Source: a virus
Taxonomy: Duplodnaviria > Heunggongvirae > Uroviricota > Caudoviricetes
IMG/VR virus record: IMGVR_UViG_2547132274_000009
DNA length: 11,639 nt
Direction: 5' to 3' (one strand)
Of this stretch, positions 344 through 11,035 are shown piece after piece; positions within the stretch are counted from its first letter, which is position 1; the number at the start of each line of letters is the position of its first letter. Below the pieces are notes generated by a model that was not told where the DNA came from, searched no databases, and worked only from the letters and a program-made list of their open reading frames with translations. A program made the translations under genes and the position numbers.

Positions 344-1705
344 ATGTTTAAACCGGAACTCCTTTCCCCGGCGGGAACGCTGAAAAATATGCGTTACGCT
401 TTCGCTTATGGCGCAGATGCTGTTTATGCGGGACAACCGCGTTATTCCCTGCGTGTGCGCAACAACGAATTCAACCACGAAAATCTTCAGCTCGGCATCA
501 ATGAAGCCCATGCGCTGGGGAAAAAGTTTTATGTCGTGGTCAACATTGCGCCGCATAACGCTAAGCTGAAAACCTTTATCCGTGACCTGAAACCAGTAGT
601 GGAAATGGGGCCGGATGCGCTGATTATGTCCGATCCGGGGCTGATTATGCTGGTGCGTGAGCACTTCCCTGAAATGCCGATCCACCTTTCGGTGCAGGCC
701 AACGCCGTAAACTGGGCGACGGTAAAATTCTGGCAGCAGATGGGCCTGACCCGCGTGATCCTCTCCCGTGAACTATCACTGGAAGAGATTGAAGAGATCC
801 GCAATCAGGTGCCGGATATGGAGCTCGAAATCTTCGTTCACGGCGCACTGTGCATGGCCTACTCCGGCCGCTGCCTGCTCTCTGGCTACATCAACAAACG
901 CGATCCGAATCAGGGCACCTGCACTAACGCCTGTCGCTGGGAGTACAACGTCCAGGAAGGCAAAGAAGATGACGTCGGCAACATCGTACACAAATACGAG
1001 CCGATTCCGGTACAAAACGTCGAACCAACGCTGGGTATCGGCGCGCCAACTGACAAAGTGTTTATGATTGAAGAAGCCCAGCGCCCGGGCGAGTATATGA
1101 CCGCGTTTGAAGATGAACACGGCACTTACATCATGAACTCGAAAGATCTGCGCGCTATCGCCCACGTTGAACGTCTGACTAAAATGGGCGTGCATTCGCT
1201 GAAAATCGAAGGCCGTACCAAATCTTTCTATTATTGCGCACGCACCGCGCAGGTTTATCGTAAAGCTATCGATGACGCCGCTGCAGGAAAACCGTTCGAT
1301 ACCAGCCTGCTGGAAACTCTGGAAGGTCTGGCGCATCGTGGTTACACCGAAGGTTTCCTGCGTCGTCATACTCACGACGATTATCAGAACTACGAATACG
1401 GTTATTCCGTTTCTGACCGCCAGCAGTTTGTTGGGGAGTTTACCGGTGAGCGCAAAGGCGATCTCGCGGCGGTAGCGGTGAAAAATAAGTTCTCCGTTGG
1501 CGACAGCCTTGAACTGATGACGCCACAGGGCAACATCAACTTTACCCTTGAGCATATGGAAAATGCCAAAGGTGAAGCGATGCCGGTTGCACCTGGCGAT
1601 GGTTATACCGTGTGGCTCCCGGTTCCGCAGGATCTTGAGCTCAATTACGCACTGCTGATGCGTAATTTCTCTGGTGGAACCACGCGTAACCCACACGGTA
1701 AGTGA
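344..1705 (+). CDS. yegQ: Peptidase U32-family protein YegQ (TrhP-like), host chromosomal gene
   Basis: 453-aa ORF with ATG at 344 preceded by a purine-rich GAGAGA. The translation (MFKPELLSPAGTLKNMRYAFAYGADAVYAGQPRYSL...) matches enterobacterial YegQ as I recall it. Length and synteny (followed by cyaR and ogr) match the E. coli yegQ-cyaR-ogrK locus. Confidence 0.85.
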   Translation: MFKPELLSPAGTLKNMRYAFAYGADAVYAGQPRYSLRVRNNEFNHENLQLGINEAHALGKKFYVVVNIAPHNAKLKTFIRDLKPVVEMGPDALIMSDPGLIMLVREHFPEMPIHLSVQANAVNWATVKFWQQMGLTRVILSRELSLEEIEEIRNQVPDMELEIFVHGALCMAYSGRCLLSGYINKRDPNQGTCTNACRWEYNVQEGKEDDVGNIVHKYEPIPVQNVEPTLGIGAPTDKVFMIEEAQRPGEYMTAFEDEHGTYIMNSKDLRAIAHVERLTKMGVHSLKIEGRTKSFYYCARTAQVYRKAIDDAAAGKPFDTSLLETLEGLAHRGYTEGFLRRHTHDDYQNYEYGYSVSDRQQFVGEFTGERKGDLAAVAVKNKFSVGDSLELMTPQGNINFTLEHMENAKGEAMPVAPGDGYTVWLPVPQDLELNYALLMRNFSGGTTRNPHGK

Positions 1706-1782: not shown

Positions 1783-1842
1783 CCGTTTCGCTGAAAAACA
1801 TAACCCATAAAATGCTAGCTGTACCAGGAACCACCTCCTTAG

Positions 1843-1876
1843 CCTGTGTAATCTCCCTTACACGGGCTTATTTTTT
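1843..1876 (+). terminator. Rho-independent terminator of cyaR
   Basis: Stem cctgtgtaa / ttacacggg (one G-U pair), loop tctccc, followed by cttatttttt. Confidence 0.7.
1850..1876. other. P2-type attachment-site core (prophage right junction, attR), overlapping the cyaR 3' end
   Basis: aatctcccttacacgggcttatttttt is the reverse complement of the 27-nt P2 att core as I recall it (AAAAAATAAGCCCGTGTAAGGGAGATT). It lies ~100 bp from ogr, which in P2 flanks attP. Recalled from memory, not searched. Confidence 0.5.
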
Positions 1877-1977: not shown

Positions 1978-2196
1978 TTACATCCACATAATTTGCTGCC
2001 CTGACGGCAACGGGTGCGGCCTCACGGCGTGGACTTCTCCCGGCTTCACAATGTATCGCTGTACCGACTCATAAGTGATGAACGTGGCGCTGCAATTCAC
2101 GTTCTGGCACTGATGATAACGCTCTTTTGTCGTGTCAGTGATATAGCGACTTGTACGCGCATGTGCGGCATGCTGGCATAAAGGACAATGAAACAT
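1978..2196 (-). CDS. ogr: Ogr, zinc-finger late-gene transcriptional activator
   Basis: 72-aa product MFHCPLCQHAAHARTSRYITDTTKERYHQCQNVNCSATFITYESVQRYIVKPGEVHAVRPHPLPSGQQIMWM with a CxxC...CxxxxC zinc-binding pattern. ATG at 2194-2196 is preceded by GGAAGAGG. The 93-aa upstream extension in the ORF track was not adopted. Confidence 0.9.
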   Translation of the reverse strand: MFHCPLCQHAAHARTSRYITDTTKERYHQCQNVNCSATFITYESVQRYIVKPGEVHAVRPHPLPSGQQIMWM

Positions 2197-2277
2197 CGCG
2201 AGCACCTCTTCCGGTTTTGTTGATGGTGCCATTTTAGTTAATTTATCCTTATAAAACAAACAGATAAAATAAAAACA

Positions 2278-8580: not shown

Positions 8581-8896
8581 CCGTTTAACTCCGTGGTTAA
8601 TGGGTGCAACTATTTTCTGTTGTGCAGAGCATGAGACGCTATTTGCCCTGGATGGTCAGTGGATGAAACAACAGATACAGAAAAGGCGGGCAATTCGCCC
8701 GCATTTCCTAATTTGTACTAACCCAGCTTCCAACTGACAATTTACGTAGCCAAAAAGCTATCAAGTCTGGCAGACTGATTTGTACGAGGTGTGGATAACC
8801 ATAATTATGTGCATGCTAACATCACGGTGCATGAGTCAATCGGGTCTATGCCAAAGAATTACGCCTTGATTGACCATAGATTGCTTGCCCTTGAAT

Positions 8897-8925
8897 TTGA
8901 CCATTCCAATAAAATGAATTATGAT
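8897..8925 (+). promoter_or_regulatory. Putative sigma70 promoter for the HTH cargo gene
   Basis: -35 TTGACC (8897-8902), 17-bp spacer, -10 TATGAT (8920-8925). This is followed by SD GGAGG (8937-8941) and ATG at 8948. Confidence 0.3.
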
Positions 8926-8947
8926 AATCGTCAAATGGAGGTGCACA

Positions 8948-9592
8948 ATGATCAAACACACCGCAGCAGAAAGGGAAACCAACACTTCAGCTAAGCTGAA
9001 TGAACACCAGTTGAACCTTCTGAAAAGAATTAACAACCTCGCTATTTCCCTGATGCCTGAATTTGAAGACAAAAACCAGGCAATTAATGCTATCACGCTG
9101 GATGATAGTTCACTGATGCAATTGCTCTACACCGTTCAACTCGAACAGAAGACTCGTGTCAATGACTACGAACTACGTAAAGTGCGCCGTCGTCGCGAAA
9201 ATCTGGAACGATTTTATCGTGGGCTTCAGGAGTTAGGCGGTACGCTAAAGGTAAATGACGTGGTCGATATTCTTGGAATCACCCGCCAGGCGATCAACAT
9301 TCGCGTTAAGAAGAACAAGCTTTTAGCATTCAAGCAGAACGGTGATTTTATTTTCCCGAAATTTCAGTTCACAGATAACGGGCTGATTCCCGGCTTTGAA
9401 GACGTAATGGCGGCATTTGACGAGAATACCCATCCAATGCTGCGGTTGGGTGTGCTGAAATCACCAATAGAGGTTAATAGCGAAGGCCTGAAAAAGACGC
9501 CGATTCAAATCATGCAGGACGGCGCTAAAAATAGTGAACTTAGTCTGGCTATCCGTGCCGCTAAACAGTTCGGAAATCATGTATCCAGTTAA
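8948..9592 (+). CDS. Cargo protein with excisionase/MerR-type helix-turn-helix; C-terminal region weakly resembles Xre/MbcA/ParS-type toxin-binding antitoxin domains (hypothesis)
   Basis: 214-aa ORF. Start chosen at the ATG preceded by GGAGG with 6-nt spacing; the ORF-track start at 8921 has no RBS. HTH-like segment LKVNDVVDILGITRQAINIRVKKNKLLAF at ~9242..9352. AT-rich codon usage unlike the flanking phage genes. Confidence 0.6.
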   Translation: MIKHTAAERETNTSAKLNEHQLNLLKRINNLAISLMPEFEDKNQAINAITLDDSSLMQLLYTVQLEQKTRVNDYELRKVRRRRENLERFYRGLQELGGTLKVNDVVDILGITRQAINIRVKKNKLLAFKQNGDFIFPKFQFTDNGLIPGFEDVMAAFDENTHPMLRLGVLKSPIEVNSEGLKKTPIQIMQDGAKNSELSLAIRAAKQFGNHVSS

Positions 9593-9600
9593 TTGTTTTA

Positions 9601-9628
9601 AAAAGAGGGGCTAGCCAGCCCCTCTTTG
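9601..9628. terminator. Bidirectional Rho-independent terminator shared by the convergent cargo genes
   Basis: aaaa-gaggggct-agcc-agcccctc-ttt: 8-9 bp GC-rich stem (around palindromic gctagc), flanked by an A-tract and a T-tract. It lies between the stop of the + gene (9590-9592) and the stop of the - gene (9631-9633). Confidence 0.6.
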
Positions 9629-9630
9629 GT

Positions 9631-10341
9631 TTACATTGGTTCTGGCGTAATTTCGAATCCAAGCAGTTCTTCGAACATCTCTTCACCTGACATCGTTCCT
9701 TTGTGCCACCCTTTAGGGAAGATACCTTCGTCATTTTCGATGTAACTGGCATAAGGCACCATCCCCTGAGGGGTATCGGTAAAGGCTGGTGTACTATCCG
9801 GTCGTTCCCAAAAGGCATAACAGCGTTTATAGCGTTTATGCCTTGAGGTATAGGCTATCCCGTCATAGTCACGCCCGAAATGTGTATAAAGATGTTCCAT
9901 TAGCCATTGAGTAAAAGTGTAATCCTCGTTCTCTAAGCTATCCAAAGGAATATGTAACAACTCACAGAGCGCTACAACATCGATCACTTTCACTGGCCTC
10001 ATGACATCCACAGAGCACATATAGTGTTGTGAAAGTACCGATTCAGGATAAGAAATCGTCCCTTCGAGATGGAGCAAACGCCCATAAGCTTCTGCCGCCG
10101 CCGTTAACGCAGAGTCAGAGGCATACCATACCGCCACACATCCCCCTGGGGGGTTGTATCGCCCACATTCATTTTCCTCAATTGGCGCTCTGAAGTTGAT
10201 TGCGCTTTCATACAACGCCATTTGATGACGCTTCAAAAGACCAGAGCCTGGTTGAATGTCAATCGCCGGAATACGTCCAGATTTATTTTTTGCAGCAATT
10301 CCTTGTGCAACAATATTTTTTTCAAATGTCCATTTGGTCAT
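9631..10341 (-). CDS. RES-domain-like protein; candidate NAD+-targeting toxin or abortive-infection effector (hypothesis)
   Basis: 236-aa ORF. Start chosen at the ATG 8 nt after AAGGAG (plus 10350-10355); the ORF-track start at 10389 is 16 codons upstream with no RBS. Motif ECGRYNPPGGCVAVWYASDSALTAAAE (Arg61, Ser75/77, Glu84) resembles the GGRWNPP...Y.ADSA....E core of RES toxins as I recall them (MbcT/ParT type). No search was run. Confidence 0.55.
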   Translation of the reverse strand: MTKWTFEKNIVAQGIAAKNKSGRIPAIDIQPGSGLLKRHQMALYESAINFRAPIEENECGRYNPPGGCVAVWYASDSALTAAAEAYGRLLHLEGTISYPESVLSQHYMCSVDVMRPVKVIDVVALCELLHIPLDSLENEDYTFTQWLMEHLYTHFGRDYDGIAYTSRHKRYKRCYAFWERPDSTPAFTDTPQGMVPYASYIENDEGIFPKGWHKGTMSGEEMFEELLGFEITPEPM

Positions 10342-10405
10342 TTTTACTACTCCTTCTATAAACAGATTAAGCCATAGGCTCCTCTCCATATTGATTGAAA
10401 ATAAT

Positions 10406-10429
10406 CCCTACCGTGCTTGCCCGGCAGGG
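10406..10429 (-). terminator. Terminator-like hairpin with T-tract, ~65 nt upstream of the RES-like gene start
   Basis: Minus-strand transcript reads CCCTGCCG-ggcaagca-CGGTAGGG (8-bp stem with one G-U pair) followed by ATTATTTTC. It could end the upstream tail-fibre operon or act as a leader attenuator. Confidence 0.35.
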
Positions 10430-10756
10430 GGTATGAGAACATGTGTATCTCAATCTCGATTATACCAAGCAAATTTTCTATTTTTCGGAAATTTAGAGAG
10501 TTTTTTTAATGCTTCGCATGCCTTCTCGATGTATTGATGGGGCTGAAAAGAAGAAATAACGCAGGAAGTTTTACGGAAAGGAGAACTATAAAGATTTTTA
10601 TCAAGTGAATTAGAAATAAGAACTTCGCAGGATACTGCATTTTTAGTGAAGATGGGTTGAGTTTCTCAGCAAGAGTCCCGCGAGAGCCATATTGACAGCA
10701 TGCATGACTCGGAGATTATTCCCCATGCAGGATGGTACACCAATGCAAGAGTTGGT

Positions 10757-10930
10757 TTACGCAAATGATTGGATGATCGCGATTACCGACCGTACATTGC
10801 GCAAATAACGTTCTGCGTCGATGCTATTAAGATGCCCCGACCACACCGTACGACGGACGCCGTAGTGATCCGAGCTTAAGAATAGATAATCTTTTCTCTC
10901 CTGATTCACCGTTCGCAGTGCGTTTTCCAT
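10757..10930 (-). CDS. Hypothetical small ORF (57 aa from ATG; the ORF-track version starts at a GTG at 10945)
   Basis: ORF only: MENALRTVNQERKDYLFLSSDHYGVRRTVWSGHLNSIDAERYLRNVRSVIAIIQSFA. No convincing RBS and no recognisable motif. It may be a gene remnant or non-coding. Confidence 0.15.
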   Translation of the reverse strand: MENALRTVNQERKDYLFLSSDHYGVRRTVWSGHLNSIDAERYLRNVRSVIAIIQSFA

Positions 10931-11035
10931 AGCTGTCGCAAGCACAATACTTCCGCTACAGGCACAGAGCGGACTGTCAGATTAGTTTTTACTCTGTGCC
11001 ATAGATGAGTAATCTCACACCAGAGCTAATACGAT

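Follow-up and report, generated by a model that had tools for sequence, protein, structure and literature searches.

A convergent gene pair in the cargo site of a P2-like prophage: a RES-family toxin and its probable winged-helix antitoxin

RES-domain toxins are known from several toxin-antitoxin (TA) systems. Xre-type antitoxins join a helix-turn-helix (HTH) domain to a C-terminal toxin-binding domain and autoregulate, and those of the Xre-RES, ParST, NatRT, and VPA0769-VPA0770 systems combine a cro/C1-type Xre HTH (PF20432 or HTH_3) with PF09722 and are encoded in same-strand operons. A RES toxin is paired with an antitoxin in Xre-RES of Pseudomonas putida (PDB 6GW6 and 9R35), NatR-NatT of P. 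aeruginosa (8QNQ), ParS-ParT (6D0H), and VPA0769-VPA0770 (8GUG), and in MbcT-MbcA of Mycobacterium tuberculosis (Rv1989c/Rv1990c; 6FKG), in which the 113-aa MbcA is co-transcribed with its toxin. MbcA is not known to have a DNA-binding winged HTH. Here we describe a RES gene that lies tail to tail with the gene for a 214-aa HTH protein (the partner) in an 11,639-nucleotide stretch of viral DNA, IMG/VR record IMGVR_UViG_2547132274_000009, referred to below as the window. A first-pass annotation had singled out the partner as a candidate for a noncanonical antitoxin or regulator. We conclude that the partner is probably both the antitoxin and its own regulator, forming with the RES protein, a predicted NAD+-degrading enzyme, a type II TA system in which the antitoxin gene is inverted. 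The module would be a RES TA system with a convergently encoded, Rv2175c-like winged-HTH antitoxin, a layout that is conserved in Gammaproteobacteria, widespread, and unrecognized and that introduces no new principle.

The minus-strand gene had been called RES-like, and both profile and structure comparisons agree. Its product matches Pfam RES (PF08808) with 47.6 bits (cutoff, 23.2; E = 2.4e-12), and PGAP names it 'RES family NAD+ phosphorylase'. With an AlphaFold2 (AF2) model (predicted local distance difference test [pLDDT], 89), the best Foldseek matches are solved RES toxins, led by MbcT (E = 7e-8), the closest solved relative, and including NatT (E = 9e-4), the P. putida RES protein, VPA0770, and ParT; diphtheria-toxin catalytic domains come after these. 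Across pairs as divergent as 20% identity, R38, R61, Y73, and E84 never vary and Y164 and S166 hardly do; three of these residues, R61, Y73, and E84, align with the core motif of MbcT. We assume that the catalytic role of the Arg/Tyr/Glu(/Ser) residues carries over from MbcT and from what is known of RES proteins generally. The longest open reading frame (ORF), of 252 aa from 10389, is unlikely to be the gene; positions 10389 to 10341 are assigned to the 5' leader because indels distinguish the lineages there.

The tail-to-tail arrangement reported by the first-pass annotation is confirmed and recurs in other copies of this pair; in the window the stop codons are 38 bp apart. The stop-to-stop gap is 30 to 39 bp in 20 of 22 pairs, and in a survey starting from RES the partner is convergent and 30 to 40 bp away in every locus examined. 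These loci include a Salmonella integrative and conjugative element (ICE), Pectobacterium, an enterobacterial chromosome, a ter-operon neighborhood, a Klebsiella megaplasmid, an Escherichia coli IncFII plasmid, Aeromonas salmonicida pAsa2, Photobacterium pAQU1, and a Pectobacterium plasmid. A survey starting from the partner in 21 species-representative genomes found a full-length convergent RES gene at 11 loci, an intact partner beside a RES gene truncated from its 5' end at five, no RES gene at four, and a contig edge at one; partner proteins fall into 127 clusters and RES proteins into 34. RES is never alone and the partner often outlives it, an asymmetry that a TA pair would be expected to show. 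E. coli A28 has a copy of the pair with 87% DNA identity, beside ArdC and IS66 genes and with no surrounding phage, and partner relatives at 25 to 28% identity (Photorhabdus and a metagenome) are again convergent with RES. The clade with an opposite-strand partner spans Enterobacterales, Aeromonas, Photobacterium, Shewanella, and Acinetobacter, on at least 143 plasmids, in ICEs, and in one P2-like prophage.

The two proteins have also diverged together. Their distance matrices for 23 pairs correlate with r = 0.96 (0.91 for distant pairs only), none of 5,000 permutations reached either value, and neighbor-joining trees of partner and RES recover the same sub-clades. Strict co-inheritance in unrelated contexts and this co-divergence both strengthen the earlier nomination of the partner as an antitoxin or regulator.

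Several individual loci illustrate the variation around the pair. In Klebsiella oxytoca (locus L006, 5001-10642), an orphan partner without RES adjoins a Tn7-like element (TnsA-like, Mu-transposase-like, TniB, and TniQ) and an 881-aa SMC/AAA ATPase gene, and the transposon may have replaced the toxin gene. RES genes appear to be damaged beside an intact partner in Erwinia sp. CGal63 (L003/L023, 5650-6357), where the frame is called in two pieces of 188 and 43 aa, and in Pectobacterium (L029/L030, 4001-4780), where a 259-aa variant with an altered N terminus overlaps the 3' end of the partner by 32 bp. Elsewhere the pair lies beside genes of defense type: a type I restriction-modification subunit (L043), a TIR-domain protein and DUF2806 (L047), a BrxR-like WHD gene (L038), and HNH/McrA-like nucleases (L028 and L042). 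The neighbors at L043, L047, L038/L039, L028, and L042 provide hints of a defense-island context.

More distant relatives place the partner where an antitoxin is conventionally found, and we regard this comparison as our strongest argument. A tblastn search of plasmids with the partner returned 263 records, many from Rhizobium, Rhodococcus, and Mycobacterium and matching over the winged HTH and C-terminal domain, and from these matches convergent and co-directional layouts were sampled by hand. A RES gene is adjacent at all eight distant plasmid loci opened. Those of Aeromonas dhakensis, Acinetobacter, and Shewanella are convergent, and those of Rhizobium (pRlX4), Methylosinus (pOB3b_03), Novosphingobium (pLA4), M. 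ulcerans (pMUM004), and Rhodococcus are co-directional: the HTH gene comes first and either abuts or overlaps the RES gene. Judged by gene order, each co-directional locus is a textbook antitoxin-toxin operon, although uncharacterized, so that a same-strand, upstream, co-transcribed antitoxin gene, a trait of RES-class TA systems, is absent from the window and present in distant homologous pairs; these upstream homologs lend further weight to the partner's candidacy. The families are the same, as hhalign matches the Rhizobium and Methylosinus proteins to the profile of the convergent family at 98.5 to 98.7% over 147 to 167 columns, including part of the N-terminal domain. Neither protein tree places the co-directional pairs within the convergent clade. 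The simplest history would be that one gene was inverted once, in an ancestral gammaproteobacterium, with the pair then inherited as a unit.

The partner gene is well delimited. Its ATG lies in an open frame spanning 8921 to 9592 and follows a Shine-Dalgarno (SD) sequence, GGAGG (8937 to 8941), by 7 nucleotides; PGAP uses the same start for a 214-aa 'hypothetical protein' (WP_061157871.1) annotated in ten complete E. coli genomes, and homologs are about 204 to 215 aa long in all 120 matches listed. The three-part layout described earlier, with an N-terminal region, an excisionase/MerR-like HTH, and a C-terminal region, is borne out (Table 1). No Pfam, NCBIfam, or PADLOC model matches the window protein, and its sole direct library match is to an excisionase HTH in PHROGs (phrog_4691; E = 1.6e-4; aa 99 to 130). 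Among 32 partner relatives, HTH_17 is found in 22, Rv2175c_wHTH in 27, and Xre-MbcA-ParS_M, weakly, in 10, and the Xre-type models PF20432 and HTH_3 are essentially missing. In contrast to the Xre-type antitoxins, the partner thus lacks a cro/C1-type HTH and has one of the excisionase/MerR winged type, gives no direct match to PF09722, and is encoded convergently; it differs from MbcA in being larger and convergently encoded and in having an N-terminal domain and a winged HTH.

The closest solved relative of the partner is instead Rv2175c of M. tuberculosis (PDB 2KFS; Pfam Rv2175c_wHTH and Rv2175c_C), with which it shares a winged HTH, the C-terminal helical domain that follows it, and the fold of the two together. 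Rv2175c, at 146 aa, has no N-terminal helical domain. It serves as a kinase substrate, and we know of no RES gene with which it pairs. A PDB search with the close-family partner profile matched only the Rv2175c HTH (E = 0.027), and a second alignment-based homolog search returned mostly the close family again. The C-terminal domain is joined to Rv2175c_C by a chain of homology and gives a weak match, in the right register, to the toxin-binding domain of MbcA (E = 0.039). These links support the suggestion that the C terminus weakly recalls the toxin-binding domain of Xre/MbcA/ParS antitoxins, with the sequence link to MbcA marginal; hhalign of the shallow close-family profile against the C-terminal fragment of MbcA gave no match. 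Any relationship to DUF2384 (PF09722) would be remote, the Pfam matches lying below threshold.

Conserved noncoding sequences surround both genes (Table 1). The partner promoter scores 10/12 in a promoter scan, and in an alignment of 14 independent loci the conserved sequence ahead of the partner gene starts precisely with the -35 element; TTGAC and GTCAAA are invariant, and the full arms ATTTGAC and GTCAAAT are nearly so. Distant pairs have inverted repeats at the same promoter position, with lineage-specific sequence and arms of 7 to 12 bp (seen at L038, L044, L047, and L052 and in the co-directional Rhizobium pair). These repeats bracketing the promoter look like those of an autoregulated antitoxin promoter. 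On Aeromonas dhakensis plasmid pA (L046, 1610-1698), 11 tandem copies of the 8-bp unit AATCGTTA replace the inverted repeat; the same word forms the half-site AATCGTTAAC of the metagenomic pair L038, and the array could be an expanded operator or an iteron-like array. The hairpin between the two stop codons has an A-tract upstream and a T-tract downstream, with the T-run stronger in the RES direction, and is kept in 13 of 14 aligned loci. On the RES side, RNAalifold keeps the 8-bp terminator-like hairpin of the leader with compensatory, both-sided changes at five pairs, and no Rfam family matches either the leader or the rest of the cassette. We infer that this hairpin is a device that keeps toxin output low, and the leader is a possible attenuator or short leader RNA.

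Table 1. Coordinates of the RES/partner cassette and surrounding features in the window
Feature	Position	Strand	Remarks
Host U32 peptidase gene	344-1705		
CyaR/RyeE small RNA	1788-1873	+	Rfam RF00112, 100.7 bits; between host U32 peptidase gene and prophage ogr
Prophage gene ogr	1978-2259	-	
GC-rich hairpin and T-run	8684-8702	-	Inside P2-homologous flank, just upstream of FI
Partner promoter	8895-8936	+	-35 TTGACC 8897-8902; 17-nucleotide spacer; -10 TATGAT 8920-8925
Inverted repeat bracketing partner promoter	8895-8901/8930-8936		ATTTGAC/GTCAAAT; candidate operator for autoregulation
Partner gene	8948-9592	+	214 aa; proposed RES antitoxin and autoregulator
Partner N-terminal domain	8948-9232		aa 1-95; helical, low model confidence
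Partner winged HTH	9233-9370		aa ~96-141; excisionase/MerR type
Partner C-terminal domain	9371-9589		aa ~142-214; Rv2175c_C/MbcA-like; confident helical model
Intrinsic-terminator hairpin	9602-9627	Bidirectional	Between both stop codons; 11-bp stem (terminator scan)
RES-domain toxin gene	9631-10341	-	236 aa; predicted NAD+ phosphorylase/NADase
RES 5' region	10342-10467	-	Alignments of 11 to 14 loci
Small hairpin in RES leader	10381-10369	-	
Terminator-like hairpin and T-run in RES leader	10429-10406	-	Hairpin also found by terminator scan
Nearly invariant 40-nucleotide stretch, then RES SD AAGGAG	3' part of RES leader	-	
RES extended -10 promoter	10467-10459	-	TGGTATAAT; about 125 nucleotides upstream of RES; stem-loop just downstream
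62-aa ORF	10757-10945	-	Matches phrog_1631 (phage-borne transposases), E = 1e-6
Tail-fiber assembly gene G	From 11036	-	

In the TA system that we propose, the RES protein would degrade NAD+ and stop growth, and the partner would neutralize it by direct binding, most likely through the C-terminal Rv2175c_C/MbcA-like domain. The winged HTH would repress the partner's own promoter at the bracketing inverted repeat, and the helical N-terminal domain would probably provide oligomerization. Because convergent genes cannot be co-transcribed, the toxin:antitoxin ratio would be set by separate signals, namely a near-consensus sigma-70 promoter for the partner versus an extended -10 promoter and a leader with a terminator-like hairpin for RES, and the bidirectional terminator would separate the two transcripts. 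The 1.55-kb core would be a self-contained mobile module, carried here as cargo at the variable site between prophage genes FI and G, where it would stabilize the prophage, abort superinfecting phage, or both. A bolder version, which we entertain only tentatively, makes the convergent layout itself the mechanism by which the module senses a shut-off of transcription or translation. Transcription of partner and RES would run head-on across the shared terminator, the partner being driven by a strong promoter and RES by a weak (attenuated) one, with the partner autoregulating; an infecting phage or loss of the element would halt partner synthesis and free pre-made RES, after which read-through of the leader terminator would rise and NAD+ collapse. 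Were this so, the pairs would form a distinct and widespread abortive-infection or addiction class of gammaproteobacterial phages and plasmids, with the Rv2175c fold as a toxin-binding antitoxin scaffold.

The winged HTH and the conserved operator-like repeats would also suit a partner that acts solely as a transcription factor and makes no contact with the RES protein, with RES harmless through low expression, which the terminator-like hairpin of its leader could maintain alone. Partner genes do exist without RES, and Rv2175c is described as a DNA-binding protein. We nonetheless regard this as quite unlikely. Long-arm operator half-sites were sought throughout the loci and found only at the partner's own promoter, never upstream of RES, which is evidence against repression of RES through the same operator, and the shared-operator model was rejected because it does not fit. 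Moreover, the C-terminal domain is conserved together with RES and is linked to the toxin-binding domain of MbcA, and the co-directional relatives overlap in the manner of classical protein antitoxin-toxin pairs. A different possibility, and in our estimation an unlikely one, is a two-component abortive-infection defense in which the partner is a sensor or switch that holds RES inactive and releases or activates it on a phage cue, rather than a labile addiction antitoxin. The conserved 95-aa N-terminal domain has no assigned role, the cassette occupies a P2-like cargo site where reference P2 also has opposite-strand accessory genes, and the five loci described above adjoin genes of defense type. 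Yet neither protein has a match in PADLOC-DB 2.0 at E ≤ 1, and many copies are on plasmids, including the 5.2-kb pAsa2, for which stabilization is the simpler account. Such a switch also overlaps with the antitoxin model, since a RES-binding antitoxin would still be required.

That the two genes are unrelated neighbors, with an excisionase/Cox-type phage regulator beside an orphan RES gene, is most improbable. The gene is in a prophage and the direct match to phrog_4691 is to an excisionase HTH, but ICEs, plasmids, and chromosomes without phage genes contain the pair at the same spacing, the two proteins co-diverge, and no full-length partner homolog was found in 50,697 phage records. Excisionase, Xis, and Cox proteins are single-domain HTH_17 proteins of about 60 to 90 aa linked to an integrase or switch region, whereas the partner is three times that size, has two additional conserved domains, and is linked in all contexts to RES and not to an integrase. 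The co-occurrence data thus already contradict this explanation.

Type II TA systems are usually recognized, by people and by pipelines, as two co-directional and often overlapping genes, and partner proteins are annotated merely as 'DNA-binding' or 'hypothetical', with no curated model to cover them. Plasmid pAsal2/pAsa2 of A. salmonicida provides an example, as its orf2 and orf3 (L041, 2396-3770) are a convergent RES/partner pair. This cryptic ColE1-type plasmid is described as lacking a TA system, unlike pAsa1 and pAsa3, with orf2 and orf3 called hypothetical, and the plasmids derived from it, pAsa7 and pAsaXII, have lost the two genes together (PMC5736529); that pAsa2 is still so described follows from the lack of a curated model for the partner. 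We found no description in the literature of a convergent RES pair, of this partner family, of RES cargo in P2 hotspots, or of Rv2175c as an antitoxin. If the partner is indeed an antitoxin, TA and defense finders miss this class, and a single inversion with both layouts surviving would be a natural experiment on control of toxin:antitoxin stoichiometry without co-transcription. It would also connect the Rv2175c fold with the Xre/MbcA/ParS superfamily of antitoxins, and the cargo of the P2-like tail-gene variable site would come to include an effector that depletes NAD+.

The right end of a P2-like (Peduovirus) prophage, next to host genes, makes up the window. Because CyaR lies between the host U32 peptidase gene and ogr, the prophage end and attachment site must be in the ~100 bp after CyaR. 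On the minus strand, ogr is followed by the prophage genes D, U, T (the tape-measure gene), E/E', FII, and FI, the last reaching to 8580, and a 2.45-kb insert with a GC content of 0.39 to 0.45, versus ~0.55, separates FI from G. Resemblance to other P2-like phages in this interval is limited to its first ~210 bp. A P2 record has two different opposite-strand genes at the same place, the Z/fun cargo locus of P2. The accessory (lysogenic-conversion) genes of P2 thus share with the window both the insertion site, between the tail-fiber assembly gene and the sheath gene, and the presence of opposite-strand genes, but the cargoes are unrelated and similarity stops at the flanks. The GC-rich hairpin in the flank would block transcription into the FI operon from the cargo region or the tail-fiber genes. 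The 62-aa ORF matches only the C-terminal ends of transposases and is likely an insertion sequence (IS) remnant. A longer unit of 2.2 kb (about 8785 to 10983), with this remnant inside it, is common to the cassette's close relatives in Pectobacterium and other Enterobacterales, and a search for terminal inverted or direct repeats that would explain the unit's mobility found none. In phage collections the cassette is confined to one P2-like lineage, represented by three contigs in IMG/VR and by 10 of 5,426 E. coli genomes.
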